From: an uncultured Acidimicrobiia bacterium | Lineage (GTDB): Bacteria; Actinomycetota; Acidimicrobiia; IMCC26256; JAENVU01 | Reading direction: 5' to 3' | Length of the DNA stretch: 64,000 nt | Assembly: GCA_963801105.1 (NCBI GenBank) | Contig: CAWDDH010000003.1 | Coordinates: 2,992,235-3,056,234, forward strand | Shown: in pieces, positions 39,001-64,000 of the stretch | Layout: every line of letters starts with the position of its first letter | How positions within the stretch are numbered: position 1 is the first letter of the stretch | The notes under the pieces: model-generated | Seen by the model: the letters and a program-made list of their open reading frames with translations, nothing else | The model's database searches: none | Told to the model about the DNA's origin: nothing | Position numbers and translations under genes: made by a program

Positions 39001-39018
39001 CCTGACGCCGGCGTCAGG
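39001..39018. promoter_or_regulatory. perfect 18-bp palindrome CCTGACGCCGGCGTCAGG in the divergent ACAD intergenic region (candidate operator)
   Basis: Read directly. It lies in the 89-bp gap between 38971 and 39061 and belongs to the CTGAC-N6-GTCAG set. Confidence 0.6.
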
Positions 39019-39060
39019 TCGCCGGCCCGAGGGTTGGGCCCGTCCCCGAGGAGCACCGGC

Positions 39061-40133
39061 GTGGACTTCGAGTTCAGCGAGGACCAGGAGCTGCTGCGCG
39101 ACTCCGTCCGCCGGTTCCTCGCCGACCGGGCCCCCCTCCCCGCCGTCCGGGCCGTGCTCGACGCGCCCGCGGTCCTCGACGACGCGTGGCGCGGGCTCGC
39201 CGACCTCGGCCTCACCGGCATGCTCGCGCCGGAATCGGCGGGCGGCGCGGGGATGGGCATGGTCGACCTCGCGCTGCCGCTCGAGGAGATGGGGCGCGCC
39301 CTGTTCCCCGGGCCCTTCGCCGCGAGCGCCGTCGGCGCGGTCGGGCTCCTGGCCGGCCTACCCGCCGACGCGGTGGCCGAGGAGTGGTTGCCCGGCCTCG
39401 CGACCGGCGAGCGCGTGGGAACCGTCGCGCTGACCGATGCCCGGACCGATCCGGTCCGCCTCGACAGCCACGGCCGGCTCCACGGGACCAAGGTGCACGT
39501 CCCCGACGGCGTGGCGGCGGACGTCCTGCTCGTCGCCACCGGCGCACCCGACCCGCCGGTCGTCGCGGTCGTGCCCGGGCAGCCCGGGGTGACGGTCAGC
39601 CCACTCGAGACCGTCGACGGGACCCGCAAGTTCGCCACGCTGACCCTGGCCGGTGTCGCCGCCCGGCCGCTCGGCGCCCGGGCCGGCGACGCGATCGCCG
39701 CGACGCGCGATCGGCTGGCCGTCGCGTTCGTGCTCGACGGCGTCGGCGCCGCTTCCGCGCGCTCGAGATGGCCCTCGAGTACGCGAAGGAGCGGGAGCAG
39801 TTCGGCAAGCCGATCGGCTCGTTCCAGGCGGTACAGCACCTCTGCGCGGACATGCTCCGCGCGGTCGAGCTGGGGCGCGCCGCTGCGTACTACGCGGCGT
39901 GGGCCTGCGACGCGGCCGACGGCGCCGAGCGCCATCGCGCGGCCACGATCGCCGCGGCCTTTGCCGCCGACGGCTTCTACCGGGTCGGCGCGACGGCCAT
40001 CCAGGTGTTCGGCGGCATCGGCTTCACCTGGGAGCACGACATCCACCTCTTCTACAAGCGGCTGCTCACGCTCCAGCAGTTTCAAGGGAGCGCGACTGAT
40101 CACCTGGAGGAGCTGGCGTCGATCGTCTTCTGA
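39061..40133 (+). pseudogene. acyl-CoA dehydrogenase family protein (beta-type subunit), interrupted by one -1 frameshift near 39755
   Basis: The N-terminal part (VDFEFSEDQELLRDSVRRFL...AVAFVLDGVGAA) is in track ORF 39034..40506. The C-terminal part (RALEMALEYAKEREQFGKPIGSFQAVQHLCADM...[17 protein letters not shown]) is in ORF 39186..40133. One base appears to be missing. Confidence 0.75.
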
Positions 40134-41406
40134 CGAGGATCGCGAGCGCGCATGCCGCGAGCACGACGATCACGGGTTCCGCGGGGACCCGGAAGCGCGT
40201 CTGTCCGTACGAGAGCAACGCGCCGACGGTCACGATCACCGGCGGGACGACCAGCGGCCAGATCGTGACCGCCCGCCGGCGCAGCAGGACCACGCCGGCG
40301 AGTGCGAGCGCCAGCAGCGGGTAGTACCACCACATGCCGACGGTGGTCAGCCAGCGCGGGCGACCTTCGGCTTCGTTGATGAAGCGCATGTCGAGCGGTC
40401 GGAACAGGCCCCAGTCGCGGCCGATGCGGGCCAGCACCACCTTCACGAACTGCGTGCGGTGACCGTCGTTGATGTAGTCGATCGCGCGCTGGCGGTAGAT
40501 GCGTGAGACGACCGACTGGTCCCCCGGCGGCGCGTGCCGGGGAATGCAACGACCGAGGTTCGTGAGCCCGATCGCGTTCCCGAAGAAGACCTCGTCACAC
40601 GTCGACCCCAGGATCGCGATCCCGTCGTTGGTCGAGATGAAGGTCGGGTCCTCGAAGCGACTCAGGTTGAAGCCCACCCAGGGGCCCACCACCACCACCG
40701 TGCCGACCGCCACGAGCGCGAGGGCCGTGAGGCGCATCCGCAGGTTGCGCGGGCGCCAGGACCAGAGCAACGGGATGCCGAGCAGGGGCGCGAGCAGGAT
40801 CAACTCGGCGCGGGCGAGCGCGGCGACACCACACACCAGACCGAGCGCCACCGCCCGTCCCCGCGACGGGTGCTCCCGGAGCTGGAGTGTGAGCAGGAGC
40901 GCGCCCACGACCGCCGTGACCGCGAGCGTCTCGGACATGATCAGCGTGTCGTTGACCCACAGGTAGGGGTACAGCGCGGCGATGACCGCGGCGACGATGC
41001 CCGCCGTCTCCCCCGCCAACCGCCGAGCGAGGAATGCCATCAGGACGATCCCGAACAGCCCGATGAACATCATCTCGAAGCGCACCGCGAGCTGGGTCGT
41101 CGACTCCGCGAGCCCGAGCCGATCGCCGGTCGCGATCACCGGCAGGATCGTGAAGACGGTCAGCGGCGGATGGTCTGCGGCCGGCAGCGAGCGGTGCGGG
41201 TGGCCGGGCAGGAACTGGAACGGATCGTTGTAGCCGTGACCCTTGCCGAGCTGGCGGGCCTGCAGCTCGTAGTACCCGGCGTCGTAGAACGAGTTCGTGT
41301 CGTGACGGGCGACGGTGAGGATGAACGCCGTACGCACGCCGGCGGCGAGCACGAGGGCCAGGAGGACTGCCGTCCGGAAGCGGTGCGATGGACGCGGCAG
41401 CGGCAC
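40066..41406 (-). CDS. GT-C-type membrane glycosyltransferase (ArnT/PMT-like)
   Basis: Track ORF 40066..41406. It has a first-loop FYDAGYYELQA motif and about 11 TM segments. Its 3' end overlaps the convergent ACAD gene by 68 nt. Confidence 0.65.
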   Translation of the reverse strand: MPLPRPSHRFRTAVLLALVLAAGVRTAFILTVARHDTNSFYDAGYYELQARQLGKGHGYNDPFQFLPGHPHRSLPAADHPPLTVFTILPVIATGDRLGLAESTTQLAVRFEMMFIGLFGIVLMAFLARRLAGETAGIVAAVIAALYPYLWVNDTLIMSETLAVTAVVGALLLTLQLREHPSRGRAVALGLVCGVAALARAELILLAPLLGIPLLWSWRPRNLRMRLTALALVAVGTVVVVGPWVGFNLSRFEDPTFISTNDGIAILGSTCDEVFFGNAIGLTNLGRCIPRHAPPGDQSVVSRIYRQRAIDYINDGHRTQFVKVVLARIGRDWGLFRPLDMRFINEAEGRPRWLTTVGMWWYYPLLALALAGVVLLRRRAVTIWPLVVPPVIVTVGALLSYGQTRFRVPAEPVIVVLAACALAILVRRRSTPAPPGDQSRSLETAGA

Positions 41407-41416
41407 CGGGTCGACG

Positions 41417-42614
41417 CTAGCTGCGACGCGTCAACAGCAGCGCGCCCGCCAGCGGTCCGCCACCGGCGCAGGCCACCCCCACCTCCGGGTCGCCGGGCAC
41501 CTGGCGCGCCCCGCCTTCGCCCCAGAGCTGCACACACGCCTCGTGCAGGAACCCGTAGCCGTGCAGGCGCCCCGCCGACAGCTGGCCGCCGTGCGTGTTC
41601 AACGGCAGGATGCCACCGTCGCGGGCGATGTTGGCCCCGCCCTCGACGAACGCGCCGGACTCACCGTGACCGCAGAAGCCCATCGCCTCGAGCCACGCCA
41701 TGGTGATGAACGAGAAACCGTCGTACATCTCCGCGAGCTGCACGTCGGCCGGCGTGAGGTCCGTGCGGGTCCAGAGCTGGGCGCCGGCGTCGCGACAGGC
41801 CATCGTCGTGAGGTCGTCGAACTGGTCCCAACTCGGACGGCCCCGGAGCGCGGTCCCGACCGCCTCGACGTGAACCGGCGGCCGGCGCAGGTCGGGGATC
41901 GTGTCGACGTGCGAGACGATCACCGCCGTCCCCCCGTCGCACGGGACGTCGCAGTCGTAGAGGCACAGCGGCGAGGAGATCATCCGGATCCCGAGGTAGT
42001 CCTCCATCGTCATCGGGTCGGTGTAGATCGCCTTCGGGTTCAGCGCCGCGTTCTTGCGGGCGTTGAGCGCGATCTGTGCGAGCTGCTCGCGCGTCGTGCC
42101 GAACTCGTGGAAGTGCCGCTGGGCCATCGAGCGCGATCCACGGCGCGGCCGACGGAGCGGCGAACGGAAGGGTCCACTCCATGAAGCCGGTCGCCTTGAA
42201 GCCACCACCGCCACCACCCGGCATCGCCGCGGCGCGGCCCTTGTCGCCCTGGGCGCTGCCCTCGAAGACGCTGCGGAAGCACAGGACGTGCGTCGCGAGC
42301 CCGGCGGCGACCGCGAGGCATGCGTCGATCACCGAGCCGAGCTGGCCGGGCAGCTCGATCCCTCCGGTCCACCACCCGATCTCGAGACGCAGTGCGTCCT
42401 GCACGTCGACCACGCCGGCCCCGCTGAACCCCGGCGGCATGCCCATCGGCCCCGGATAGGTCGCGATGCCGTCGATGTCGGCCGTCGTGAGTCCGGCGTC
42501 ATCGATGGCGGCCAGGCACGCGTCGAGCGTGAGCTCGAGCGGATCGCGGTGGAGGCGCCGCCCGACATCGGACTGGCCGACACCGCTGATGACGGTCATC
42601 GACTCGGGCTTCAT
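41417..42614 (-). pseudogene. thiolase-like lipid-transfer protein (Ltp/SCP-x-type, non-acetyl-CoA thiolase), interrupted by one +1 frameshift near 42128
   Basis: The N-terminal part (MKPESMTVISGVGQSDVGRR...FAAPSAAPWIAL) is in track ORF 41661..43052. The rest (MAQRHFHEFGTTREQLAQIALNARKNAALNP...NTHGGQLSAGRLHG) is in ORF 41417..42217. The ATG makes an ATGA overlap with the DUF35 stop. Confidence 0.75.
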
Positions 42615-43052
42615 GCGGACTCCGGCACGAACAGCGGGATGAAGACATCGCCGTCGGGATCGGGGTGGCGCTCGAACACGACCCGCATCGGCATCCCGAT
42701 CCGCAGATCCTCCGGCGCGCACCCGAGCGACATTCGTCGTCAGGCGCAGGCCGTCCTGCTCGGGGAGCTCGACGATCGCGATGACGTAGGGCAGCTCCGG
42801 CCCCGGCATCCACGGCTGGTGGTTCACCGTGTAGGTGTGCAAGGTCGCGGTGCCAGAAACCGCTTCGGACGCGAGCCGCTTCGAGTGGCACATCGGGCAG
42901 ATCGGCGTGGGCGGGTGGTTGTAGTAGCCGCAGTCCTGGCAGCGGAGGAAGCGCAGCTCGCCCTCGGCCCCGCCGGTCCAGAAGCCGCGGTTGAGGTCGG
43001 TCAGCCGCGGCAGGATCCGGAACGGGACCTCGGCATCGGCGTCGGTCGCCAC
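42611..43052 (-). pseudogene. DUF35 OB-fold/zinc-ribbon protein (thiolase partner), interrupted by one +1 frameshift near 42728
   Basis: The N-terminus has a Zn ribbon (LRCQDCGYYNHPPTPICPMCHS). After ...LRLTTNV the sequence continues in the next frame as LGCAPEDLRIGMPMRVVFERHPDPDGDVFIPLFVPESA, then a stop. Confidence 0.7.
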
Positions 43053-43053
43053 G

Positions 43054-43401
43054 TCAGTCGTCCTCCGGGGGCTGGGCCTCGTCGAACGCGGCCCGGGCGA
43101 TCGGGATCGCCTCGACGGCCGCGAGCATCCCGAATGCAGGGACGGTCAGCATGATCGAGCCGAGCACCTCGTCCCACTGGGCGCCGACCTCCGCCGCGAG
43201 CCGGGCGTGGCGGGTGATCCCGGCGGGATTGCGCAGCACCACCGTGCAGACGAGTCGGATCAGCTCGTGCGTCTTGCGATCGGGTGCCGGCAGCGAGTCG
43301 ATCTGACCGAGCCACGAGCTCTGCGCTCCGTGCAGCGCCGGGAACACCTCGTGCAGCGGCTCCTCGAACGGGAAGCTCCAGTCCGGCTCCTGCTCGGACA
43401 C
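43054..43401 (-). CDS. carboxymuconolactone decarboxylase (AhpD-like) family protein
   Basis: Track ORF 43054..43401. It is 115 aa and contains the string KTHELIRLVCTVVLRNPAGITRHARLA. Confidence 0.6.
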   Translation of the reverse strand: MSEQEPDWSFPFEEPLHEVFPALHGAQSSWLGQIDSLPAPDRKTHELIRLVCTVVLRNPAGITRHARLAAEVGAQWDEVLGSIMLTVPAFGMLAAVEAIPIARAAFDEAQPPEDD

Positions 43402-43404
43402 GCG

Positions 43405-43815
43405 TCAGCCTGCGGGCCGGAAGCGGACGATGGTGACGTCGTCCGAGATCGGGTGGTACTCCGCCTCGAGGGTCATGCCCTCGACGAGGTCGTCGAAGTC
43501 GCAGTCGACGACGTTCGTCATCATCCGCGGTCCCTCCTCGAGATCCACGACCGCCGCGACATAGGGCACCCGCTCGTGGAAGGGCGGGAGATCGTTCCGG
43601 CGGACGATCGACCATGTGTAGAGCGTCGCCCGGCCGCTGGCCTCGACCCACTCGACGTCCTGGCTCCAGCAGTGCGGGCAGAACGGTCGGGGGTAGAAGT
43701 GGAACTCGCTGCACGCGTTGCAGCGCTTGATGAGCAGCCGCCCCTCCCTGGCCGCGTCCCAGAACGGCTGGGTCTCGAGGTCGGGGGTCGGGAGGTCGAA
43801 GCGGACCGTGCTCAT
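43405..43815 (-). CDS. DUF35 OB-fold/zinc-ribbon protein (intact)
   Basis: Track ORF 43405..43815. It contains FWDAAREGRLLIKRCNACSEFHFYPRPFCPHCWS followed by an OB-fold region. Confidence 0.8.
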   Translation of the reverse strand: MSTVRFDLPTPDLETQPFWDAAREGRLLIKRCNACSEFHFYPRPFCPHCWSQDVEWVEASGRATLYTWSIVRRNDLPPFHERVPYVAAVVDLEEGPRMMTNVVDCDFDDLVEGMTLEAEYHPISDDVTIVRFRPAG

Positions 43816-43822
43816 CTCGACC

Positions 43823-44254
43823 TCACGCGCTCGGCGGGAGCGCCGCCACGGCGACGCCGGTCAGCTTCGCCTCGCCGGCCTGGTTGGTGACCCAGCACTC
43901 GAGGTCCACCCGGTGCTCGGGGCCCTCTTCGTACTTGCGGGCGACGGTCACGTGGGTGGTGAGCCGCTCGCCGGGCCAGGTCTGCTTGGTGAAGCGGATC
44001 TTGTAGGTCCGGAGGTTGCCCACGCCGACATAGTCGGTGATCGCCCGGCCGAGCAGCCCGGCGGTGAACATCCCGTGCCCGAAGACGCCGGGCAGACCGG
44101 CCTCCTGCGCCTTCACCTCATCGGTGTGCATCGGGTTGAAGTCGCCCGAGGCCCCCGCGTACATCACCAGATCCGTCCGGGTCAGCTCGTGGGTGCACTC
44201 GGGTGCCGAGTCCCCCTCGCTGACGTCGTCGAAGAACAGCTTCTGCTCGGCCAT
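43823..44254 (-). CDS. MaoC-like (R)-specific enoyl-CoA hydratase/dehydratase
   Basis: The start is MAEQKLFFDDV (ATG 44254). It has the hot-dog motif YAGASGDFNPMHTDEVKAQEAGLPGVFGHGM. Confidence 0.8.
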   Translation of the reverse strand: MAEQKLFFDDVSEGDSAPECTHELTRTDLVMYAGASGDFNPMHTDEVKAQEAGLPGVFGHGMFTAGLLGRAITDYVGVGNLRTYKIRFTKQTWPGERLTTHVTVARKYEEGPEHRVDLECWVTNQAGEAKLTGVAVAALPPSA

Positions 44255-44331
44255 GCCGCCCGCAGTGTTCCCGCTTCCTGACACGAACGTCAACTCATCC
44301 GTGCGGCCCGGCCCCGACACGCGGGATGGGG

Positions 44332-46503
44332 CTACGGGTCCTTCGGGAGGCCGAGCACCCGCTCGCCGATGATGTTGCGCTGGATCTCGCTGGTGCCGCC
44401 GGCGATGGTGAGGTTGCGGGTGAAGAGGAACTGCTCGGACCACATCGCGGCCGGACCGTCGGCGACGGCACCCGCGGCACCGAACAGCGCGAGCCCCACC
44501 TCCTGGACGCGCTGGTCGTGCTCCACGCCGAGCAGCTTGCGCACCGAGGCCTCGGAACCCGACGGGTCCGCACCGCCGAGGGCCGACAGCATCAGCCGGA
44601 AGCCGAGCACCGACAGCGCGTAGTCCCGGGCAACGAGCTCGCCGACGTCCGCGAGCGTGGCGGTGTCGTCCTCGAGCCCGTGCTCCCGGACGAGGTCCAG
44701 CACGCCGCGCACCCCACGCCCGAGCGTCGCGCCGCTGCCCATGGAGACCCGCTCGTTCGCGAGCGATGTGCGCGTGGCGCGCCAGCCGTCGTGCTCCCGC
44801 CCGACCAGACAGTCCTCCGGCACGAACACGTCGTCGAAGAAGACCTCGTTGAAGAACGCGTGGCCCGTGAGCTCGCGCAGAGGGCGGATGTCGATGCCGG
44901 GCGTCGACATGTCGAGCATGAAGAACGAGATGCCCTCGTGCTTGGGCACCTCGGGATCAGTCCGTGCGAGCAGGATTCCCCAGTCGGCCTCCTTGGCCAT
45001 CGAGGTCCATACCTTCTGCCCGTTGACGATCCAGCCGCCGTCCACCCGCTCGGCCTTCGTCGCCAGAGCGGCGAGATCCGAGCCGGCGCCCGGTTCGCTG
45101 AAGAGCTGGCACCAGGAGATCTCGCCCTGCAGCGTGGGCGGGATCCACCGATGCTGCTGTTCCTCGGTGCCGTAGACCATCAGCGGCGGCAGCGCCCAGC
45201 CCCCGATCATCAGCGTCGGCCGCACGACCTTCGCGGCGCGGAACTCCGCGTCGATCACCAGTTGTGCGACCGCGTCGGCGTCGCGCCCCCAGGGCTCGGG
45301 CCACTGCGGCGCGAGGTAGCCGGCGTCGGCCAGCGCGCGCCGGCGGGCCACGTCGTCGAGCCCGTCCAGCGAGGCGATGAACTGGCGTACCTCGGCGCGC
45401 AGCACCTCCGCCTCCTCGGGCAGGTCGACGGCCAGACGCCGCACCGCGCCGCCCATCGCCTCCCGTGCGGAGCGCACCCGCGGGCCGGTGGACGTCCCGA
45501 GCAGCGCGCGGGCGGCGATCGCGCGCCGCAGGTAGACGTGCGCGTCGTGCTCCCAGGTGAACCCGATCCCGCCCAGCACCTGCACGCAGTCCTTCGCCGT
45601 CTCGAACGCGGCGTCGATCGTCAGCGCCGCCGCGGCCGCGGCGGTGAATCCACGCGTATCGGGATCCTCGGCGGCGCGGGCGGCGTCCCACACCGCCGCG
45701 CGTGCGAGCTCCGTGCGCGCGGTCATGTTGGCGCAGCGGTGCTTGACCCCCTGGAACTGCCCGATCGGCCGGCCGAACTGCCGGCGATCGCGGGCGTACT
45801 CCGCCGCCGTGTCCACGCACCACTGCGACGCCCCGACCAGCTCGGCCCCGAAGAGCACCGCGGCGAGATCCCGGACCCGCGCGGCGGAGAGTGCCGGGAG
45901 GAGGCGCGACCGCGCGACCGTCGCGTCCACCGTCACCTCGGCGACCCGACGCGTCCGGTCGACCGAGGGCAGCTCGCGGGCCTCGAACTCACCGTCGAGC
46001 AGCACGATCCACCCCTGCCCGGTGTCCGCCACCACCAGCTCCGCGAGATGACCGGAGAGCACGGGAGTCACCGTCCCCACCACCGCGAGCCGACCGTCGA
46101 CGTCCGAGACCTCGACCGAACCCGTCAGTGCGACGGTCCCGACGAACCCGCAGGCCGCGAGGCCGGAAAGGAACTCCGCCGCGTGATCGTCGCCCGCGTC
46201 GACCGCGGCCTGCAGCGCCGCGGCGGCGAGCGCGTGACCGAGGAACGGCCCGGGCGCGCCGGCCCGACCCAGCTCCTCGAGGACGACCGCGAGCTCGACG
46301 AGCCCGGCGCCCTCCCCCGCGTGCTCCTCCGCGACGTGGATACCTGGCCAGCCCTGGCCGGCCAGCTCCTGCCAGAACACGGGCAGCGTCTCGTACGGAG
46401 CGTCGAGCAGCGCGCGCGGCACGGCGGGCGGACAGTGCCGCTCGACCCACCCGCGCACGGCGCGGTGCAGCTCCTGGTGCTCGTCCATGATCCCGATCGC
46501 CAT
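44332..46503 (-). CDS. fused two-module acyl-CoA dehydrogenase (beta-like N-half plus alpha-like C-half), 723 aa
   Basis: Track ORF 44332..46503. The N-half parallels 39061..40133 (…[25 protein letters not shown]…[17 protein letters not shown]). The C-half parallels 37778..38971 ([21 protein letters not shown]…[17 protein letters not shown]…[17 protein letters not shown]). Confidence 0.85.
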
Positions 46504-46531
46504 GGGCCCGGATCGTACGGTCCGCGCGTGC

Positions 46532-46552
46532 GATCTGACGATCCGTCAGATC
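46532..46552. promoter_or_regulatory. inverted repeat GATCTGACG-ATC-CGTCAGATC in the divergent gap between fused ACAD and amidohydrolase (candidate operator)
   Basis: Read directly: 9-bp perfect arms and a 3-nt spacer, with core CTGAC-N5-GTCAG. Confidence 0.55.
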
Positions 46553-46595: not shown

Positions 46596-48322
46596 ATGAC
46601 CGATCTCGTCATCACCGGAGGAACACTCGTCGACGGCACCGGCGCCGCGCCGAGGACGGCCGACGTCGCGGTCGACGACGGTCGCATCACCGAGGTCGCC
46701 GACGCCGGTGCGCTCGCAGGCACGAGCGCCGACCGGACGATCGACGCCGACGGCCTGCTCGTGACCCCGGGCTTCGTGGACATCCACACCCACTTCGACG
46801 GCCAGATCACCTGGGACCCGCTCCTCACGCCGTCCTGCTGGCACGGCGTCACCACCGTCGTCTTCGGCAACTGCGGCGTCGGCTTCGCCCCGGCCCGCCC
46901 CGACAAGCACGACTGGCTCATCGGCCTGATGGAGGGCGTCGAGGACATCCCCGGCGCCGCGCTCTCCGAGGGCATCCAGTGGGGCTGGGAGTCCTACCCC
47001 GAGTACCTCGACGCGGTCGACCGGGTCCCGAAGTCGCTCGACGTCGGCTCGCAGGTCCCGCACGGTGCCGTGCGCGCCTACGTGATGGGCGACCGCGGCG
47101 CGAAGAACGAGCCGGCGACCGCGGACGACATCGCGGCCATGGCCGGAATCGTGCGCGACGCAATCGCGGCCGGCGCGCTCGGCGTGTCGACGTCACGCAC
47201 GATCGCGCACATGGCCATCGACGGCGAGCCCGTGCCCGGCACCTTCGCGGCCGAGGACGAGCTGTTCGGCATCGGTCGCGCGCTGGCCGACGCGGGCGGA
47301 GGGATCTTCGAGCTCGCCCCCGCCGGTGCGCTCGGCGAGGACCTCGCCGCCCCCGACCGCGAGATGGACTGGATGCGCCGGCTCTCCGCGGCGATCGGGC
47401 GGCCGGTGAGCTTCGCCCTCACCCAGAACGACCACGACCCCGACAGCTGGCGGCGCATGCTCGAGCTCGCGGGACGAGGCCCGCGCCGAGGGCGCGCAGG
47501 TCCGCCCGCAGGTCGCCGGCCGTCCCGTCACGCTGCTGCTCGGGATTCGAGACCTTCCACCCGTTCGCGTACTGCCCGAGCTGGGCCGAGATCGGCCTGC
47601 TCGCGGTCCCCGAACGCGTCGCCCGGTTGCGCGTCGACGCCGGCCTGCGCGCCCGCCTCGTCACCGAGGCCTCCACCCCCGATCCCGCGATGCTGCAGTT
47701 CCTCGACCCGGCCAAGGCCTTCCCGCTCGGCGATCCGCCCAACTACGAGCCCGACCCGTCCGAGAGCATCGCGGCACGCGCGGCTGCCACCGGCCGCAAC
47801 GTCTACGAGCTCTACCTCGACCTCCTCATGGAGAACGACGGGCGGGCGCTCGTGATGCGACCGCTGCTCAACTACACCGACGCCAACCTCGACGCGGTGC
47901 GCGAGATGCTGCTGCACCCGACGAGCGCCTGGGGTCTCGGCGACGGCGGTGCGCACTGCGGCACCACGTGCGACGCGTCCACGCCGACGTTCATGCTGAG
48001 CCACTGGGCCCGCGACCGCACGCGCGAGCAACTGCCCGTCGAATGGGTCGTGCGCAAGATGACCTCCGAGACGGCCTCGCTCTACGGCCTCGGCGACCGA
48101 GGCACCGTGGCACCGGGCCTGCGTGCCGACCTCAACGTGATCGACCACGGCGGGCTGCGCCTGCATGCTCCCGAGATGGTCTATGACCTTCCGGGTGGCG
48201 CCCGGCGGTTCATCCAGAAAGCCGACGGCTACGTCGCCACGGTCGTCGCCGGCGAGGTGACCTTCGAGCACGGCGAGGACACCGGTGCCCGGCCGGGCGC
48301 GCTCATCCGCGGCGCCCGCTGA
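46596..48322 (+). pseudogene. N-acyl-D-amino-acid deacylase family amidohydrolase (paralog of 34469..36142), interrupted by two +1 frameshifts near 47472 and 47545
   Basis: The N-terminal 290 aa are in track ORF 46596..47855 ([22 protein letters not shown] ... WRRMLELA). About 24 codons follow in the next frame (DEARAEGAQVRPQVAGRPVTLLLG). The rest is in ORF 46487..48322 (FETFHPFAY...GLGDGGAHCG...). Confidence 0.8.
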
Positions 48323-51937: not shown

Positions 51938-53119
51938 TCACGGCCCGCGGATCTCGACACCGCGAGGGTCGATGAAGTGGGCGTCGTCGCCGTCGAACTT
52001 CACGATCCAGCCGGGTCTGTGGACCAGGTGGTGGTGGTAGTCACAGAGCAGGATCAGGTTCGACAGGTCGGTGCGGCCGCCGACGCGCCAGTGGACGACG
52101 TGGTGGGCGTCGGTCCAGGCCGGGGGCCGCGTGCAGCCGGGGAACCGGCAGCCGCCGTCGCGGACACTGAGGGCGCGGCGTTGCGCGCGGTTGACGACCC
52201 GTGACTCCCGGCCGGTGTCGATGGGGACCGAGTCGGGGCCGAGCACCACGCGTGAGACGTCACAGTCGCAGAGGAGCCGCTCGATCGTCGAAGCGGTCAT
52301 GAGGCCGGTGTAGCTCCCGTCGAGCCGGCCCGGCGCGCCGTTGGTGAGGGTCGCCCAGTCGACGACCGCGGTCATGGAGGGCCGGGCCCGTGCGGATCCG
52401 TCCGGTCCGGACCGACCGACGGCCGCCATCGCGACACGGGCCATGGTGACGAGCGCGTCGACGCGGCGCCGTCCCGCAGACCGCGGGTCGTCGTCGCCGG
52501 GCGGGTCGGTGAAGTGGTGGATCGCGCCGACGACGACCTCGGCGGCGTCCTCCGACAGGTCCACGCTGAGGTAGGTGCGCCCGGCGTAGGTCTGCGCGAT
52601 CGACAAGCCGTCGAGGTCGCGTGGACAGGTGCCGTCGGCGGTCGCCAGGTTCCGGAATCGCCTGCAGGCCTTCACGAGCTCGCGGTCGAGCCGGTCCCGG
52701 GCCAGACCCAGCAGGGACGGTTCGACCGCGGTGAGCTTCAGGTCGTGCCCGTCCACGCGCGCGCCGATGATGGTGCGGGCCGCGGTCGCGGTGATCTCAC
52801 CCTCCCGCCACGCCCGACCCGTCTCGACCAGGGGTCCGGCACAGGCGTCGCCCGCCTCGATCGCGCCACGAGCCTCGCCGTGGCGCATCCCGGTGTGGTG
52901 TCGCAGCCACGCCATCGTCGACGACGAGCCGTCCGCCGCCCCGACCCCCCGCTGATGTCCGAGGTGGGCGACGCGGGCAAGGTGGCCCAGCACGCGGTCG
53001 ACGGCGGCCTGGGCGCCGATGAGCTCGTCCCTGATCTCCTGGTCCGTGAGCGACGCGGGATCGACGGCGATCACGGCATCGACCGCCGTGTGCAATGTCC
53101 CCATCCGTCCGCCGAACAT
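51938..53119 (-). CDS. DUF222 domain / HNH endonuclease protein (REP13E12-like family), second copy
   Basis: The start is MFGGRMGTLHTAVD (ATG 53119). The C-terminal HNH motif is CRFPGCTRPPAWTDAHHVVHWRVGGRTDLSNLILLCDYHHHLVH. Confidence 0.8.
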   Translation of the reverse strand: MFGGRMGTLHTAVDAVIAVDPASLTDQEIRDELIGAQAAVDRVLGHLARVAHLGHQRGVGAADGSSSTMAWLRHHTGMRHGEARGAIEAGDACAGPLVETGRAWREGEITATAARTIIGARVDGHDLKLTAVEPSLLGLARDRLDRELVKACRRFRNLATADGTCPRDLDGLSIAQTYAGRTYLSVDLSEDAAEVVVGAIHHFTDPPGDDDPRSAGRRRVDALVTMARVAMAAVGRSGPDGSARARPSMTAVVDWATLTNGAPGRLDGSYTGLMTASTIERLLCDCDVSRVVLGPDSVPIDTGRESRVVNRAQRRALSVRDGGCRFPGCTRPPAWTDAHHVVHWRVGGRTDLSNLILLCDYHHHLVHRPGWIVKFDGDDAHFIDPRGVEIRGP

Positions 53120-53221: not shown

Positions 53222-54418
53222 TCAGGCCGGGTCGAAGACCACCGGCAGTGTGGTGGGCGACCGGAACCGCTCGCCGTGGATGTGCACGTCGTCGGCCTCC
53301 CAGCGGTCCCGATCGGGCGCCAGGTTCGGGCAGCGGTCCAGCAGCCGGTTGACCGCGGTCATCATCTCCATCCGGGCCAGATGCATCCCGAGACACATGT
53401 GGACGCCATGGCCGAACGCGATGTGCGGCTGCGGCGCCCGGAAGATGTCGAGGTCGTCGGGCCGCTCCCAACGGGTCTCGTCGTGGTTCGCCGCTCCGAT
53501 GTTGACGGTCACGAAGCTCCCTCGAGGAATCATGACCCCCGCGACCTCGGTGTCGCGGGCGCACTCCCGCGACGTGATGAGGAGCGGACCCTCCCAGCGG
53601 ATCGTCTCCTCGATCGCCTGGGGCATGAGCTCGCGGTCAGCGCGCAGCGCCTCGAGTTGATCGGGGTTGGTGAGCAACCCGTACAGGAAGCTGCCCGTCG
53701 CGCGGTAGGTCGTCTCGGCACCGGCGGGCAGGAGCAGACGAAGGAACGAGAAGATCTCCTCGTCGCCGAGGCGCTCGCCGTCGAGCTCGGCCGTGGTCAG
53801 CTCGCTGATGATGTCGGTCCCGGGGTGCGTCCGACGCTCGTCCATGATGCCGGCGAAGTACTCCCGCAGCTCCTCGCTCGCGAGGATCCCCTCCTCGGGC
53901 CGGACCGCGACGTTGATCAGCGCGAGCGCGCGGGGGTGGAAGAACGCATGGTCCTCCCGCGGCAGGCCGAGGATCGCGGCGATGACCTGCGCGGGGTAGT
54001 GGTAGGTGAACTCGCTCACGAGATCCGCCTCGCCCCGCGCCACGAACCCGTCGATCATCTCGTCGACGACCGGGACGACGAGGTCCTCGTCCCAGTGCGC
54101 GAGCACCCGGGCGCGGAACGCCTGCGCGACCAGCGTCCGCAGCCGCCGGTGCTCGGGCTCGTCCATGCCCACGAGCGGGTACGGGCCCATCACGACGCTC
54201 ATGAACTCCCGGATCGAGCCCGACGGGAAGGCCTCGTGATCGCGCATGACCTGCGAGACGAGCTCGTACGGGTAGATCTCGTACCCGCCGTCCGCCATGA
54301 GCTCCACGGGCGAGTCCGCCCGCTTCCCGCGGAACGCGGGGTACGGATCGCGCAGGTCGCCGGCCACACCGGAGAACTGCGCCATCGGGTCGAAGGGGAC
54401 CGCCGTCGTTGCTGACAT
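53222..54418 (-). CDS. cytochrome P450
   Basis: The start is MSATTAVPFDP (ATG 54418). It has the I-helix LLLPAGAETT, the ExxR motif (ETIRW), and the heme loop FGHGVHMCLG. Confidence 0.9.
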   Translation of the reverse strand: MSATTAVPFDPMAQFSGVAGDLRDPYPAFRGKRADSPVELMADGGYEIYPYELVSQVMRDHEAFPSGSIREFMSVVMGPYPLVGMDEPEHRRLRTLVAQAFRARVLAHWDEDLVVPVVDEMIDGFVARGEADLVSEFTYHYPAQVIAAILGLPREDHAFFHPRALALINVAVRPEEGILASEELREYFAGIMDERRTHPGTDIISELTTAELDGERLGDEEIFSFLRLLLPAGAETTYRATGSFLYGLLTNPDQLEALRADRELMPQAIEETIRWEGPLLITSRECARDTEVAGVMIPRGSFVTVNIGAANHDETRWERPDDLDIFRAPQPHIAFGHGVHMCLGMHLARMEMMTAVNRLLDRCPNLAPDRDRWEADDVHIHGERFRSPTTLPVVFDPA

Positions 54419-54427
54419 TCGCGTCAG
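54412..54427. repeat. inverted repeat CTGAC-ATTCGC-GTCAG spanning the P450 start codon
   Basis: Read directly (gCTGACATTCGCGTCAGc). It is a member of the CTGAC-N6-GTCAG set. Confidence 0.6.
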
Positions 54428-56607: not shown

Positions 56608-57138
56608 ATGGCACCCTCCCGTCGTCTCCGTCTGCGCCCGCTCGGCGCGATCGCCCTCGTCCTGCTCGTCCCCGTCGCGCTCGTCGCCTGCGACTCGGGA
56701 GGATCGAAGTCCCGCGCGACCTCGACGACCACACGGCGCCGGCCGCACCGCACGACCACGACCTCGTCGAGCAGCAGCACGAGCACGGTGCCGACGACCG
56801 CCACGACCGTGCCCACCACGCTCACGGTGCCGCCGACGACCTCCCCGGGTGCGGGCACCTGTGGCGCCCAGCAGAGCGTCATCACCGCGGCGGTCCTCGG
56901 CGGTGACCTCGGGCCGGTGCCGATCGGGAGCTACGACGTCGTGAACTGTCGCATCGCCGGCTCGAATCCGATCTGGGCCGCCGTCGGACTGAACCCCAAG
57001 GCGGGTACCGGCGTGACGCCATTGAGCGTCGTGCTGCAACGGCTGGGGGCGACCTGGACCGTCCACGCCTACGGGATCACCCGTGTCGGGTGTGACGCGC
57101 CGCCGCCCGTCCCGTCCGAGCTCGGGCTCGGCTGCTGA
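56608..57138 (+). CDS. lipoprotein with Ser/Thr-rich linker, unknown function
   Basis: It has a signal peptide plus lipobox (LLVPVALVAC), a long T/S/P low-complexity linker, and a C-terminal domain of about 90 aa containing 3 Cys. Confidence 0.6.
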   Translation: MAPSRRLRLRPLGAIALVLLVPVALVACDSGGSKSRATSTTTRRRPHRTTTTSSSSSTSTVPTTATTVPTTLTVPPTTSPGAGTCGAQQSVITAAVLGGDLGPVPIGSYDVVNCRIAGSNPIWAAVGLNPKAGTGVTPLSVVLQRLGATWTVHAYGITRVGCDAPPPVPSELGLGC

Positions 57139-57150
57139 CTCGCGGGTCAG
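57135..57150. repeat. inverted repeat CTGAC-TCGCGG-GTCAG containing both convergent stop codons (possible bidirectional terminator hairpin)
   Basis: Read directly. TGA 57136-57138 and TCA 57147-57149 lie in the arms. Confidence 0.55.
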
Positions 57151-58325
57151 GCCGGCAGCACCTCGAGCACCGTCGCCGAGCCCATCCCACCGCCGGCGCA
57201 CATGCTCGCCACGCCGATGCCGCCGCCCCGTCGGCGCAGCTCGTTCACGAGGGTGACGATCATGCGGGCGCCCGTCGCCGCGACCGGGTGGCCGATGCTG
57301 CAGCCGCTGCCGTTCACGTTCGTGATCTCGTGCGGGATGCCCAGGATCCGGGTGCTCGCGACGCACATCGAGGCGAACGCCTCGTTGATCTCGAACAGGT
57401 CGACGTCACCGATGACCATGCCGGCGCGATCGAGCGCCTTCGGGATCGCGTAGGTCGGGCCGAGACCCGTGTCCTGGGGCGGCACGCCCGACGAGGCCCA
57501 GGCCTTCACGACCGCCATCGGGACCAGACTGTGCGCCTGCGCGTAGTCGGAGTCGACGAGCATCAGCGCCGCGGCCGCGTCGTTCAGGCCGGACGAGTTG
57601 CCCGCCGTGATGCTGAACCCCTCGATCTCGGGGTGGAGCGGCTTGAGGCTCGCGAGCTTCTCCATGGTCGTTCCCCGGCGCGGGTGCTCGTCGACCTGGA
57701 AGGTCACCGTCTCGCCGTCGCGCCGCGTCACCTTGATCGGCACGATCTCGTCCTCGAAGCGTCCCGTGTCGATCGCGTCGACGGCCCGGGCGTGGGACTC
57801 ACAGGCCCAGAAGTCCATCTCCTCGCGCGTGACCTTCGCCTTCTGCGCAGTGTTCCACCCGACCGTGATCGACATGTCGAACGCCGGAGCCTCCGGCGTC
57901 TCGGGGTGGCTCGGCGACATCCACGGCTCCATGTCGTCGGTGCCGAGCTTGCGCTTCATCGCCGCCGGCGACGTGGAGATGGATTCGGTCCCGCCCGCGA
58001 TCACGACCCGGTCCATGCCGGCCCGGATGCTCGCCGCGGCGCCCTGGACCGCCGCCATGCCCGACGCACAGTGGCGGTTCAGCGCGACGCCGGGGACGTT
58101 GGCCAACCCGAGGTCGACCGCCGCGAACCGGGCGATGTCGCCGCCGCCCTGGAGCGACTCGCCGAGTTGGAGGTCGTCGACGTCCTCCTTCGCGATCCCC
58201 GACCGCTCGAGCGCTTCGCCGACCGCGTACGCGGCCAGGTCGAAGGCCGACACGTCGAGCAGCGTGCCCTTGCGGGCGGTGCCGATGGCGGTCCGGGCGG
58301 TCGAGACGATGACGGCGTCACCCAT
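57147..58325 (-). CDS. acetyl-CoA C-acyltransferase (thiolase II/I family, FadA-like)
   Basis: The start is MGDAVIVSTARTAIG (ATG 58325, with a GGAGGAT SD). It has the active-site context NRHCASGM, NEAFA, and the C-terminal GSGCSIGHPVAATG..CAGGGMG. Confidence 0.9.
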   Translation of the reverse strand: MGDAVIVSTARTAIGTARKGTLLDVSAFDLAAYAVGEALERSGIAKEDVDDLQLGESLQGGGDIARFAAVDLGLANVPGVALNRHCASGMAAVQGAAASIRAGMDRVVIAGGTESISTSPAAMKRKLGTDDMEPWMSPSHPETPEAPAFDMSITVGWNTAQKAKVTREEMDFWACESHARAVDAIDTGRFEDEIVPIKVTRRDGETVTFQVDEHPRRGTTMEKLASLKPLHPEIEGFSITAGNSSGLNDAAAALMLVDSDYAQAHSLVPMAVVKAWASSGVPPQDTGLGPTYAIPKALDRAGMVIGDVDLFEINEAFASMCVASTRILGIPHEITNVNGSGCSIGHPVAATGARMIVTLVNELRRRGGGIGVASMCAGGGMGSATVLEVLPA

Positions 58326-58381: not shown

Positions 58382-58397
58382 CTGACGCCCGTGTCAG
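58382..58397. promoter_or_regulatory. inverted repeat CTGAC-GCCCGT-GTCAG 57 nt upstream of the thiolase ATG (candidate operator)
   Basis: Read directly (cCTGACGCCCGTGTCAGc). It is a member of the CTGAC-N6-GTCAG set. Confidence 0.55.
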
Positions 58398-60730: not shown

Positions 60731-60817
60731 CACCCCAGACTGCCAGACCCCACCCGACCCGCCGGGACTCGCGCCCGGGTAGCTTGCGCAGCGCGCATCG
60801 GCGAACGAGGGGGAACG

Positions 60818-62341
60818 ATGCCCGAGTGGGGGGACCTGCAGGTCGACCAGCTGCGGTTCATGGCCGCGACGTTCCCGGATGCGGTCGCGTACCGCGATCT
60901 CGACGCAGGCACCAGCATCACGTTCCGCGAATGGGACCGCACGTCCAACCGGCTCGCCCGCGCGCTCGTGGCGGCCGGGACCGCACCCGGCGACCGCGTC
61001 TCGATCCATCTCCCGAGCGACGAGGCGCTGCGCTGGATCGTCGCCTACGCGGCGGTCCACAAGGCCGGGGCCGTGGTCGTGCCGACCAACACGCGCCTGA
61101 CCACTCCCGAGGTGGTGACGATCCTCGGCCACGCCGAGGCGTCCACGATCCTCACCTGCGGATCTCTGCTCGACCAGGCGCTCGCCGCGCGTGAGGCGGT
61201 CCCGTCGATCGGCATGGTCGTGACCGCCGGCGGCGGATCGGACCCCGGCGTGCACGACTACGACGCGTTCCTCGCCGACGACGACTCGGACGTCCAGGTC
61301 CCGCGCACCGTCGACGACCTCGCCGACATCATGTACACGTCGGGGACCACGGGCCTCCCGAAGGGCGTGGCGGTCCGGCACCGGAACGTCGCGATGATCC
61401 CGAACCACGAGCCCGACTGGACCGGCGCCGGTTGGATCCACGGCGCGCCGATGTTCACCTTCGCGGGCATCGCTTTCATCTACAACCCGATGAAGATGGG
61501 GTTGGTCGGCCTCTACCTGCCGAAGTTCGACGCCGGCCGCTGGCTCGACCTCGTCGCGACCGAGCGGCCGCGCATGGCGTTCCTCGTCCCCGCGATGGCC
61601 GAGCTCCTCGTCGCGCATCCGCGCTTCTCCGACCCCGATCTCACCAGCCTGCGGGCCGTGTCGATCGGGAGCGCGCCGCTCGCACCCCAGACCCTGCTCA
61701 CGCTCCAGGAGCGTCTCCCCGACGCCACCGTCTCCAACTCCTACGGCATGACCGAGGCAGGACCCGCCTACATCGTGATGCCCAAGGACGAGGTCACCAA
61801 GCGCATCGGTTCGGTCGGCAAGCCCGTCGGCCCCATGCAGCTCAAGGTCGTGCGCGACGACGGCAGCGAGTGCGACGCGCGCGAGGTCGGCGAGCTCCTG
61901 ACCCGCATGGAGGGGGCGCAACGCGAGTACTACAAGGACCCGGGCGCGACGAGCAGCACCTGGACCGCCGACGGGTGGCTCCGCAGCGGCGATCTCGCCT
62001 ACCTCGACGAGGACGGGTTCCTGTACATCTCGGGGCGCAAGAAGGACATGATCATCCGCGGCGGGCACAACGTGTACCCGACCGACATCGAGGCGGTGCT
62101 GCTCGAGCACCCCGACGTCCGCGAGGCCGCGGTCGTGGGCATCCCCCACCCGGTGCTCGGCGAGGACATCGCCGCGCACGTGGTGCTCCGCACCGGTGCC
62201 GTCGCCGATCCCGAGGCGCTTCTCACCTTCTGCGCCGAGCGGCTCGCCGACTACAAGTGCCCCCGGCAGCTCCACTTCACCGACGATCTCCCCCGCAACG
62301 CCACCGGGAAGGTGATGAAGCACAAGCTCGTCGACGCCTGA
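60818..62341 (+). CDS. AMP-dependent acyl-CoA synthetase/ligase (FadD-like)
   Basis: ATG 60818 follows a GAGGGGGA SD. It has the AMP motif IMYTSGTTGLPKGV, YGMTEAG, GWLRSGDLAYLDEDGFLYISGRKKDMI, and a terminal PRNATGKVMK. Confidence 0.9.
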   Translation: MPEWGDLQVDQLRFMAATFPDAVAYRDLDAGTSITFREWDRTSNRLARALVAAGTAPGDRVSIHLPSDEALRWIVAYAAVHKAGAVVVPTNTRLTTPEVVTILGHAEASTILTCGSLLDQALAAREAVPSIGMVVTAGGGSDPGVHDYDAFLADDDSDVQVPRTVDDLADIMYTSGTTGLPKGVAVRHRNVAMIPNHEPDWTGAGWIHGAPMFTFAGIAFIYNPMKMGLVGLYLPKFDAGRWLDLVATERPRMAFLVPAMAELLVAHPRFSDPDLTSLRAVSIGSAPLAPQTLLTLQERLPDATVSNSYGMTEAGPAYIVMPKDEVTKRIGSVGKPVGPMQLKVVRDDGSECDAREVGELLTRMEGAQREYYKDPGATSSTWTADGWLRSGDLAYLDEDGFLYISGRKKDMIIRGGHNVYPTDIEAVLLEHPDVREAAVVGIPHPVLGEDIAAHVVLRTGAVADPEALLTFCAERLADYKCPRQLHFTDDLPRNATGKVMKHKLVDA

Positions 62342-62406
62342 GCGCCGTCCACGACCGCGCTAGCTTCCCCGGCCGGACCCGACGTCGACGTCACCGGGAG
62401 CGGACC

Positions 62407-62853
62407 GTGGCACTCACCGAGCTGAAGGGCACCAAGGGCGACCCGCAGGTCGTGCGCATCGAGCGGGGACCCGTGCGCGTGTTCGCCCAGGCGCTGATGG
62501 ATGCGGACGCGGTCTACGACGGCGCGGACGCGCCGGTCCCGCCGACGTTCCCGTTCGTGATGCCGTTCTGGGGCTCCGAAGGTGCGGGAGGCGCCGCAGG
62601 ACTCCCCATCGAGAGGCTGCGTGGACCCGGACGGGCGATCCTCCACGGCGAGCAGGGCTTCGAGTACTACCGCTGGCCCAAGGTGGGTGACGTGCTCGTC
62701 GGCACGTCCGAGATCGTCGACGTGTACGAGAAGGAGAAGTCACGCGGCGGGAAGCTGGAGTTCTACGTCCAGGAGACCACCTGGCGGGACCAGGCCACCG
62801 ACGAGCCTGTGGTGAAGAACATCTTCACGTTGGTGATCAACTGCAAGGCCTGA
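62407..62853 (+). CDS. MaoC-family dehydratase, N-terminal-type hot-dog subunit (HadA/FAS1-like)
   Basis: GTG 62407 is in frame within track ORF 61432..62853. It contains PPTFPFVM..., ILHGEQGFEYYRWPKVGDVL and KLEFYVQETTW. Confidence 0.65.
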   Translation: MALTELKGTKGDPQVVRIERGPVRVFAQALMDADAVYDGADAPVPPTFPFVMPFWGSEGAGGAAGLPIERLRGPGRAILHGEQGFEYYRWPKVGDVLVGTSEIVDVYEKEKSRGGKLEFYVQETTWRDQATDEPVVKNIFTLVINCKA

Positions 62854-62858
62854 CGGTC

Positions 62859-62877
62859 GCTCGGGCAGCGCCCGAGC
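62859..62877 (+). terminator. GC-rich hairpin (8-bp stem GCTCGGGC/GCCCGAGC, 3-nt loop) 6 nt after the stop; possible intrinsic terminator without a U-tract
   Basis: Read directly. It lies in the convergent gap 62854..62963. A second small hairpin (GGCGGG-TAT-CCCGCC) follows. Confidence 0.4.
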
Positions 62878-62963
62878 CGGTAGCGAAGCGGACGGCGAGC
62901 AGCGGCGCAGCGTGAGCGAGGCGGGTATCCCGCCGAGGAGCGGAGCCGCAGACAGGACGTTCT

Positions 62964-63854
62964 TCACCAGCCGATGTCGGCGAGGAACGTGGCGACGAGA
63001 CCCACCGTCGTCTCGGGGTTGTCGCCCGCGGCGTGGTGGCCGGCGGCCGCGATGGTCGCCAGTCGCGCGTCCGGGATGAGCGCGGCGATCTCCTCGGCGC
63101 CCTCGGAGGACAGGACGTCCGAGGCCGCACCGCGCAGCACCAGCACGGGACAGGTGAACCCGCGGATGTCCTCGTCGAGGCCGGCGACCAGCTCCCGCCA
63201 CCCGCCACCCTCGCCGATCTCGACGCCCGACCGCAGCCGCTTCGTGTACCCGTGCTTCCACTCCCAGCGGCCGTCGGGCCGCCGCCGCAGGTTGCGGGTC
63301 AGACGCTCGGGCCGCACGGCCCGCCGCCGGGGCAGGTACTCCGCCACCGCCGCCGCGGCCTCGTCGAGGTCCGCGAACGACTCGTGGGCGCGCATGAACT
63401 CCACGATCCGCTCCACCCCGGCGTCCTCGAGTCGGTGGGCGATGTCCACCAGGACGATTCCCGCGACGAGCTCGGGCCGCGCGGCGGTCAGCGTCATCGA
63501 GACGAGGCCACCGAGCGACGCGCCGACCAGCACCGCCCGCTCGATGCCGAACGCCTCGAACAGCGGCGGCAGGGTCGCGGCGAGCGCCTGGCGGGACATG
63601 TCCTCGATCGGGTCGCTGTCGCCGTGCCACGGCAGATCCGGTGCGAGGACGTGGTGGCCGACGCCGAGCGCGGCGCCGAGCTCCTCCCACATGTACGCGG
63701 TCTGTCCGCCGCCGTGCAGGCACAGAACCGCCGGCGCGCCCGACGGTCCCCACTCGAGATAGTGCACCTGCCGGTCGTCGACGAGCGTGAAGCCGCTGCG
63801 TCCGGCGGTGGGGATGTCGTGACGGGGGACGTTGGACTCGACCTCGGCGACCAT
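62964..63854 (-). CDS. alpha/beta-fold hydrolase
   Basis: Track ORF 62964..63854. It has LCLHGGGQT (oxyanion region), the nucleophile elbow GASLGG, and a late GHHAAGDNPE (catalytic His). Confidence 0.8.
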   Translation of the reverse strand: MVAEVESNVPRHDIPTAGRSGFTLVDDRQVHYLEWGPSGAPAVLCLHGGGQTAYMWEELGAALGVGHHVLAPDLPWHGDSDPIEDMSRQALAATLPPLFEAFGIERAVLVGASLGGLVSMTLTAARPELVAGIVLVDIAHRLEDAGVERIVEFMRAHESFADLDEAAAAVAEYLPRRRAVRPERLTRNLRRRPDGRWEWKHGYTKRLRSGVEIGEGGGWRELVAGLDEDIRGFTCPVLVLRGAASDVLSSEGAEEIAALIPDARLATIAAAGHHAAGDNPETTVGLVATFLADIGW

Positions 63855-64000
63855 CGCCGCATCCTGACACGACCGTCATCGGCGTGGCATCGTGGCCCTG
63901 TGCCGGACTCCGACGCCCCCGTCGTGCGTACCGGCGACCCGGCCCTCCCGTACCGCCGGCGCATCCGCCTGCTCCGCCGCGACCCGCACACGGTTTGGGG

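Follow-up and report, generated by a model that had tools for sequence, protein, structure and literature searches.

Among the described systems that come closest to the element treated here, KstR is a TetR-family protein of Mycobacterium and Rhodococcus that recognises the box TnnAACnnGTTnnA and whose regulon includes fadA5, fadE28/29 and ltp2 (PMC1995591). RutR, another TetR-family protein, binds TTGACCAnnTGGTCAA in E. coli, with natural sites that include CTGACCAATCGGTCAC; in proteobacteria it controls pyrimidine catabolism, with many sites located within genes (PMC2475637). Cmr (Rv1675c), of the CRP/FNR family, binds TGTCA-N6-TGACA (PMC4705688). The element in question is an inverted repeat, CTGAC-N5/6-GTCAG, which recurs in a 64-kb stretch of DNA (G+C 70-75%) from an uncultured Acidimicrobiia bacterium (contig CAWDDH010000003.1), the whole of which is called the window hereafter. 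Comparison of sequences leads us to propose, with a probability of about 0.75, that a dimeric helix-turn-helix transcription factor uses this motif as its operator to control a dispersed regulon of beta-oxidation of the lipid or steroid side-chain type. It would be a conserved operator motif working like those of known regulons, through an ordinary mechanism and not a new kind. A description of the motif was not found in the searchable literature, which is absence of evidence only.

The comparison was built on 80 related loci (designated by L-numbers) from species-representative genomes, fetched with the fused acyl-CoA dehydrogenase (ACAD) gene of the window (44332-46503) as query. For gene calling, the clearest open reading frames served to train a codon log-likelihood model; names came from Pfam and, for some genes, NCBIfam. 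The closest relatives of the window are the Acidimicrobiia metagenome-assembled genomes (MAGs) L001, L002 and L006, which are strongly syntenic and 66-80% identical in protein sequence; a 97%-identical relative (L201, taken from an ENA assembly) and a 77% relative (L206) were also used. The exact form CTGAC-N6-GTCAG is found four times in the window (39002, 54412, 57135 and 58382) against 0.13 expected from dinucleotide-preserving shuffles (n=100), none of which held at least four copies, and CTGAC-N5-GTCAG is found once (46535) against 0.04; an earlier estimate had put the expectation far below one copy per 64 kb. That estimate belongs to a preliminary description of this DNA in which six copies were listed; all six are where it placed them, as are the extended palindromes at 39001-39018 and 46532-46552, and its gene boundaries, including the P450 start codon inside the 54412 site, are essentially right. 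Once a mismatch is allowed, three further N6 copies appear (63864, 23163 and 44278). The first of these had been listed before; the other two had been overlooked, although they satisfy the 9/10 match accepted earlier, and with the copy at 23163 the statement that the first 38 kb hold none is not quite right.

A weight matrix trained on N6 sites outside the window and then run on it returned exactly six N6 sites (23163, 39002, 44278, 54412, 58382 and 63864), all non-coding and scoring 18-23 bits, with nothing in the window between 9 and 18 bits. Together with the N5 copy, all seven sites lie in non-coding DNA at gene starts (P ~7e-6). The N6 consensus reads yTGACrC-NN-GyGTCAr, the centres of its two TGAC half-sites being about one helical turn apart. 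Over the window and the 80 loci (1.59 Mb, 87% coding by our own gene calls), copies of CTGAC-Nx-GTCAG number 2 for N3, 1 for N4, 60 for N5, 29 for N6, 1 for N7 and 0 for both N8 and N9, the spacings without enrichment serving as an internal control for base composition. As in an operator, two inverted half-sites are therefore held at fixed spacing, only N5 and N6 being enriched, and they are restricted to non-coding DNA near gene starts: among 89 copies with N5 or N6 spacing, 84 lie outside coding sequence, against a non-coding background of ~14% (binomial P ~1e-64), and most copies have a start codon 5-100 nt downstream. The preliminary description had considered that the motif might be equally frequent inside coding regions; on these loci it is not. 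In an independent sample, high-GC metagenome contigs with the 14-mer TGACACCCGTGTCA carry the site upstream of genes that encode ACADs, Amidohydro_2 proteins, an Ltp-thiolase, acyl-CoA synthetase, enoyl-CoA hydratase, FGGY kinase and hydantoinase.

The preliminary description had also called for a search in related genomes, and this search found the sites conserved at the orthologous P450, thiolase, MaoC, ACAD-pair and fused-ACAD promoters of MAGs at 65-90% protein identity, in flanks that have diverged, which is again the behaviour of an operator. The P450 site is kept in L001 (4841), L002 (4818), L006 (3008), L004 (1158), L201 (19319) and L206 (19227), and the thiolase site in L002 (704), L005 (2043), L038 (1659) and L201 (15349), with one-mismatch forms in L001 (792) and L206. 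At the ACAD pair the 39002 site is retained in L001 (18970), L009 (16656) and L160 (1823). The MaoC gene (43823-44254, minus strand) is the first of a MaoC-DUF35-CMD-DUF35/Ltp-thiolase operon, and its site takes the form TTGAC...GTCAG, 23 nt before the ATG, in L001 (13655), L003 (12173), L009 (12442) and L017 (9265), and GTGAC...GTCAG, 26 nt before the called start, in L010 (16356). For the alpha/beta hydrolase, whose divergent neighbour is a DUF2889 gene starting past the end of the window, L201 has GTGACGGCCGTGTCAG at 9976, and in L206 the right half is intact and the left half degenerate. The positions of the window sites and of the other elements discussed below are gathered in Table 1.

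Table 1. CTGAC-type sites of the window, the rejected look-alike, and related elements (coordinates are those of the window unless a locus is named; strands in brackets)
Feature	Position	Context	Score or source
N6 site (9/10) CTGACACACACGTCAA	23163-23178	divergent gap, ADH/glyoxalase-like/F420-LLM operon 20679-23127 (-) / lipoprotein-like gene 23201-24499 (+)	18.4 bits
N6 site, perfect 18-bp palindrome CCTGACGCCGGCGTCAGG	39001-39018	divergent gap, ACAD 37778-38971 (-) / ACAD 39061-40133 (+)	20.4 bits
N6 site (9/10) CTGACACGAACGTCAA, minus-strand reading TTGACGTTCGTGTCAG	44278-44293	23 nt upstream of MaoC hydratase start	19.4 bits
N5 site GATCTGACGATCCGTCAGATC = GATCTGACG-ATC-CGTCAGATC	46532-46552	divergent gap, fused steroid-type ACAD 44332-46503 (-) / amidohydrolase 46596-48322 (+)	
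N6 site CTGACATTCGCGTCAG	54412-54427	P450 gene 53222-54418 (-); ATG of the gene within the site, in the spacer	20.9 bits
N6 site CTGACGCCCGTGTCAG	58382-58397	upstream of thiolase gene 57147-58325 (-)	22.8 bits
N6 site (9/10) CTGACACGACCGTCAT	63864-63879	10 nt upstream of alpha/beta hydrolase ATG, gene 62964-63854 (-)	18.2 bits
Look-alike CTGACTCGCGGGTCAG, rejected as site	57135-57150	two convergent TGA stops	<9 bits on matrix
Span with putatively controlled operons	37778-63854	ACAD pair, MaoC-DUF35-Ltp, fused ACAD, amidohydrolase, P450, thiolase, alpha/beta hydrolase	Pfam, NCBIfam, PDB
N5 box, Streptomyces form ATCTGACGnnnCGTCAGAT			
Composite element of the TetR-X gap	L015 8325-8361; L018, L025, L030, L031, L036; L204 9773-9800; L205 9856-9885		

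Read by eye, hexamers of the form TAnnnT adjoin the sites or stand 1-18 nt away from them. In the P450 orthologs the hexamer (TAAGCT, TAGGCT or TACAAT) adjoins the left arm, and the site would probably cover the end of the -10 element, the transcription start and the ATG of a leaderless message. The thiolase site lies 1-11 nt upstream of TACGAT or TACGCT, the 39002 site ~18 nt upstream of TACCGT on the side of the minus-strand ACAD, and the 46535 site precedes TACGAT by 17 nt toward the ACAD and TAGGCT by 7 nt toward the amidohydrolase; the ACAD and fused-ACAD sites, 17-18 nt upstream of TACCGT/TACGAT, would thus be on the -35 region. Judged from the position of the sites only, a bound protein would block RNA polymerase and act as a repressor, by occupying the -10 element, start point and ATG at the leaderless P450, and the -35/-10 spacer or the -35 region at the thiolase, ACAD, MaoC and fused-ACAD promoters. 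Release would probably be brought about by an acyl-CoA-type catabolic intermediate, by analogy with KstR and FadR-like TetR repressors. The protein itself would most likely be of the TetR family and encoded outside the window; we advance this family assignment as a tentative one, standing slightly short of an even chance.

The N5 copy singled out in the preliminary description is real, and the comparative data separate it from the N6 copies with which it had been lumped: N5 and N6 are two distinct classes. In Streptomyces (28 loci, 0.58 Mb) there are 53 N5 copies and no N6 copy, the consensus being ATCTGACG-NNN-CGTCAGAT, which the window N5 copy (GATCTGACG-ATC-CGTCAGATC) matches, AT flanks included. 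In the Acidimicrobiia loci and the window (0.60 Mb) the numbers are 27 for N6 and 5 for N5, and all five N5 copies are at the fused-ACAD/amidohydrolase promoter, the sole place where the N5 class survives in the lineage of the window; the N6 class is found in Acidimicrobiia and in some other uncultured Actinomycetota. At this one promoter the spacing is N5 in L001 (9956), L002 (9956) and L006 (9957) and N6 in L003 (9963) and L008 (9962), and ~25 Streptomyces loci have CTGACCTTCCGTCAG there. Recognition of the N5 class probably falls to a paralogous regulator or to another mode of binding within one family.

In Streptomyces the N5 box stands upstream of an LLM oxidoreductase, of the fused ACAD with an Ltp-type thiolase, and of a MaoC hydratase with an ADH. 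The fused-ACAD and MaoC promoters, not that of the LLM gene, combine the N5 box with a perfect KstR box (TAGAACGCGTTCTA or GGAACGTGTTCTAG): at the fused ACAD (L022, L040, L058, L066 and others, ~9959-9990) the two boxes are 3-4 nt apart, and at the MaoC/ADH promoter (L066 19580-19660) the N5 box is ~60 nt upstream of the KstR box. A KstR-like TetR protein (192 bits with the NCBIfam KstR model) is encoded near the Streptomyces N5 loci. Since CTGAC boxes and KstR boxes stand side by side, each would be read by a different protein, and the arrangement suggests dual control of KstR-regulon genes. We consider it possible, though on the doubtful side, that an undescribed regulator family spans classes of Actinomycetota: with N5 sites it would co-regulate steroid-type side-chain beta-oxidation beside KstR in Streptomyces, with N6 sites it would have taken over a whole KstR-like regulon in an uncultured Acidimicrobiia clade, and the two spacings would have been switched at one orthologous promoter. 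The promoter of the fused steroid-type ACAD is wired to a KstR, an N5 or an N6 box depending on the actinobacterial lineage, and the N5 boxes beside KstR boxes point to a second regulator of KstR-regulon genes in culturable Streptomyces, where follow-up would be easiest. What makes it worthwhile is that the motif is conserved across classes, that it occurs together with KstR boxes and that N5 and N6 are switched at one orthologous promoter. For the abundant uncultured soil Acidimicrobiia, the matrix lets the lipid or sterol-like regulon be mapped in any MAG.

How far the motif resembles the described systems depends on the feature considered. As a functional analogue KstR is the nearest: its dimer-bound 14-bp palindrome with a 6-N2-6 core overlaps the -10 element, and its sites are scattered over the promoters of cyp genes, fadA-type thiolases, heteromeric steroid-type ACADs, MaoC hydratases and Ltp-thiolases. 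The CTGAC motif, TGACrC-NN-GyGTCA, is nevertheless not the KstR motif, TAGAAC-NN-GTTCTA. The fused-ACAD orthologs of Streptomyces and Actinomadura, and those of some Acidimicrobiaceae, carry a true KstR box; the window has a single match, in coding DNA at 5028-5041 (TACAACACGTTCAA) and probably due to chance (a match is present in 6 of 100 shuffles), and none between 39 and 64 kb. The KstR2 motif AnCAAGnnCTTGnT has no match in the window, and tblastn with the Streptomyces KstR-like protein detected no KstR ortholog in the window or in L001-L008. The earlier opinion that the motif belongs to neither KstR nor KstR2 is thus borne out. RutR is closest in the geometry and core of its DNA site, a 16-bp palindrome TGAC-N6-GTCA, but its inner bases are CCA/TGG where the CTGAC motif has rC/Gy, so that the motif is not a RutR-type box; a RutR ortholog was not found, and the TetR protein discussed below as TetR-X scores a weak 38 bits with the RutR model, whose cut-off is 368. 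Cmr shares the 16-bp palindrome, the 5-bp arms, the 6-bp spacer, the very pentamer words and an actinobacterial host, but its half-sites are everted relative to (C)TGAC...GTCA(G), which implies a different binding surface. Lacking the features of the KstR, KstR2, RutR and Cmr motifs, the CTGAC motif falls outside those regulons. Mce3R, whose regulon is similar, was set aside as well, as it binds a non-palindromic sequence (PMC11667970).

The search for the regulator combined Pfam annotation of genes neighbouring the sites in Streptomyces, Acidimicrobiia and metagenome loci with jackhmmer screening for 12 regulator families among 1754 predicted proteins from 1.9 Mb of related DNA. The screening yielded 71 regulator-like genes, and for 11 of these a site lies at most 400 nt upstream; no CRP-type gene among the 71 has an upstream site. 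Four of the 11 are KstR genes of Streptomyces, rejected because the supposed site, CTGACG(T/C)TCGGTCAG, lies in their N-terminal coding region, where it encodes LTERQ (L058 901-915, also L065 189, L066 622 and L079 280). The others are an HTH_67 protein (L008), an XRE-type and a TipAL-like MerR protein (both L134) and, for the rest, a TetR protein that we call TetR-X. The L134 XRE-type gene is 399 nt from its site, which is itself inside coding DNA. HTH_67 proteins, kept as candidates like the TipAL-like MerR protein and TetR-X, are encoded in two unrelated loci (L008 15800-16456 and L113 4623-5477) at distances from N6 sites of several hundred bases up to 2.4 kb. We also rejected a PaaX-like protein seen at a single locus, the TetR proteins of L038, L043 and L159, which have no site, and stand-alone cyclic-nucleotide-binding proteins without a DNA-binding domain.

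TetR-X is the sole recurrent candidate. It belongs to another Acidimicrobiales lineage and is encoded divergently from a P450-ferredoxin-fused-ACAD operon; each of the eight loci examined shows an N6 site upstream of its gene. In all eight gaps the site is one part of [TGACAC-NN-GTGTCA]-N7-[CAAACG-NN-CGTTGG], a composite element whose core is AT-rich. Across the six TetR-X loci covered by genome scans the second palindrome is confined to that gap, in single or adjacent copies; in L204 it has one mismatch. TetR-X was not seen in the lineage of the window, and it seems to us a rather unlikely, though not negligible, candidate for the regulator. Just upstream of the TetR-X gene of L204 stand about nine tandem GGTCACA-like heptamers (9885-9945), and 143-aa cyclic-nucleotide-binding proteins (L204 14292-14723, L205 14162-14593) are conserved beside acyl-CoA synthetase/ACAD genes in the vicinity.

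Several points weigh against the operator interpretation as we have put it. Among the proteins of the window Pfam finds no cognate regulator and, as already said in the preliminary description, no TetR, GntR or IclR gene, but only an ECF sigma factor and an XRE/AbiEii pair. A TetR gene (TetR_C_38) ~9 kb past the end of the window, a candidate we rejected, has no site in its operon promoter. The CAAACG-NN-CGTTGG palindrome could equally well be the operator of TetR-X itself. The presence of N5 in some MAGs and N6 in others at one orthologous promoter is unusual for a rigid dimer. A scan of the window with the sigma-70 consensus gave no promoters in this GC-rich DNA, the -10 hexamers and leaderless starts having been picked out by eye, and the scans covered loci rather than whole genomes, which limits what can be said of regulon size and genome-wide specificity. 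Finally, the choice of a repressor over an activator draws on the position of the sites, some of which would suit a class II activator too.

Such an activator, of class II or MerR type, recruiting or remodelling RNA polymerase at weak catabolic promoters, is the rival that fares best, and we regard it as improbable. The N5 site at the fused ACAD would be centred at about -39 from the start point, the Streptomyces MaoC site is directly upstream of a -35 element TTCACA, and the MaoC site of the window begins with TTGAC. A further argument comes from L134 (7840-7883), where TTGCAC-CTGACGTTACGTCAG-GTTC-TAGCGT, with a 19-bp spacer, is found 18 nt upstream of the TipAL-like MerR gene; its dyad CTGACGT-T-ACGTCAG matches CTGAC-N5-GTCAG, so that an N5 look-alike sits within a textbook MerR-type promoter, which may resemble the tipA operator. 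This look-alike is the only copy with the 19-20-bp spacer and the fixed position of a MerR-type site, whereas the window and Streptomyces N5 sites have neither a fixed place relative to -35 and -10 nor the inner ACGT-N-ACGT. Activators, MerR proteins included, need fixed phasing, yet the sites run from overlap with the -10 element (P450) to 18 nt upstream of it (ACAD), the offset differs among thiolase orthologs (1, 3 and 11 nt), and the P450 site is over the start point and ATG. Regulons of such gene content are, moreover, typically repressed, as with KstR (PMC1995591).

Less probable is that the motif represents a -35-like box for an alternative sigma factor, with no separate regulator. Several sites are indeed at the -35 position, the MaoC form reads TTGACG, and the ECF sigma factor of the window (27451-28305), with its SnoaL_2 C-terminal extension, would be at hand. 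The motif is, by contrast, two-fold symmetric with a strict N5 or N6 spacer, where -35 elements are asymmetric and at a fixed distance; divergent promoters are served from a single copy, the distances to the -10 hexamers and start codons vary, and the P450 copy is downstream of the -10 element. The XRE/AbiEii pair mentioned above, an XRE antitoxin and an AbiEii-like toxin, is encoded at 31610-32499.

Less probable still is a hairpin acting as a DNA or RNA structure, of the REP type or otherwise, with a role in processing, stability or termination. The palindromes do fold, at -5.6 to -13.7 kcal/mol (z -4.2 for N5 and -1.4 to -2.6 for the others), and one copy is between convergent genes. A covariation test on 83 distinct non-coding TGAC-N6-GTCA sites gave, for complementarity at the positions outside TGAC/GTCA, observed against expected numbers of 38/29.7, 36/32.9, 43/36.4 and 26/27.4, and the single-arm changes TTGAC, GTGAC and ATGAC stand opposite GTCAG without compensation. 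This lack of covariation outside the invariant tetramers argues that a protein reads the sequence as two half-sites and that no stem is being maintained. The core is invariant in its four bases, the loop is free and the flanks are not conserved; the sites mark 5' ends and divergent promoters, the lone 3'-end copy (57135) being unconserved; no copy has a T run or terminator-like site, and no Rfam family was detected in the window. Of the two readings left side by side in the preliminary description, the operator is therefore well supported by spacer specificity, restriction to non-coding DNA, conservation in orthologs and a probable overlap with the promoter elements read by eye, and the REP hairpin is largely refuted.

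Chance or composition, for instance C-TGA-C stop contexts in a high-GC genome, has the poorest prospects of all: the arms do contain TGA/TCA, and both the 57135 copy and the LTERQ look-alike are by-products of coding, but the shuffles, the 0-2 copies at other spacers against 60 and 29, and the conservation at promoters where no stop codon is involved refute it for the six N6 sites and the N5 site, and it holds for 57135 only. That copy, which the preliminary description had counted, is probably a coincidence of stop-codon contexts. An interval of 8 nt separates the ends of the two convergent genes, both of which have their TGA stop in a C-TGA-C context; the score stays below 9 bits because the inner purine/pyrimidine positions are missing, neither L001 nor L002 has the copy at the orthologous junction, and in L201 (16597-16613) the arms are spaced by N7 instead of N6.

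With the motif read as an operator, the putative targets in the window have a gene content that parallels that of the KstR regulon. By PDB search, the fused ACAD joins counterparts of both subunits of heteromeric ACADs of the steroid type (Tcur3481/Tcur3483 and ChsE 4x28), one in its N-terminal and the other in its C-terminal half. For the P450 and the thiolase no specific assignment to CYP125 or FadA5 was obtained, and the substrate can accordingly be described only as lipid or sterol-like. The operon of ADH, glyoxalase-like and F420-dependent LLM genes (20679-23127) is a putative target outside the 37.8-63.9 kb span; LLM and ADH genes of Streptomyces have N5 sites.

Several genes of the window, putative targets among them, change reading frame. 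The ACAD gene at 39061-40133 switches frame midway, near 39700, its N- and C-domains being in different frames, and the amidohydrolase gene (46596-48322) does so near 47450, its L001 ortholog being an intact gene of 576 aa; frame changes were also seen in the Ltp/DUF35 genes (41417-43052) and in a hypothetical gene (37084-37770). Because fragmented genes occur in the related ENA assemblies L205 and L206 too, indel errors of long reads are likelier than true pseudogenes. Between the catabolic operons stand DUF222/HNH genes of the 13E12 type (51938-53119 and 30248-31594 in the window), which recur beside related clusters (L201 20629-20891, L204 11835-13007 and L205 12032-13369). The window also contains two genes for AftD-like GT-C arabinofuranosyltransferases (10384-18034), notable for Acidimicrobiia; AftD is best known from the cell walls of Mycobacteriales.

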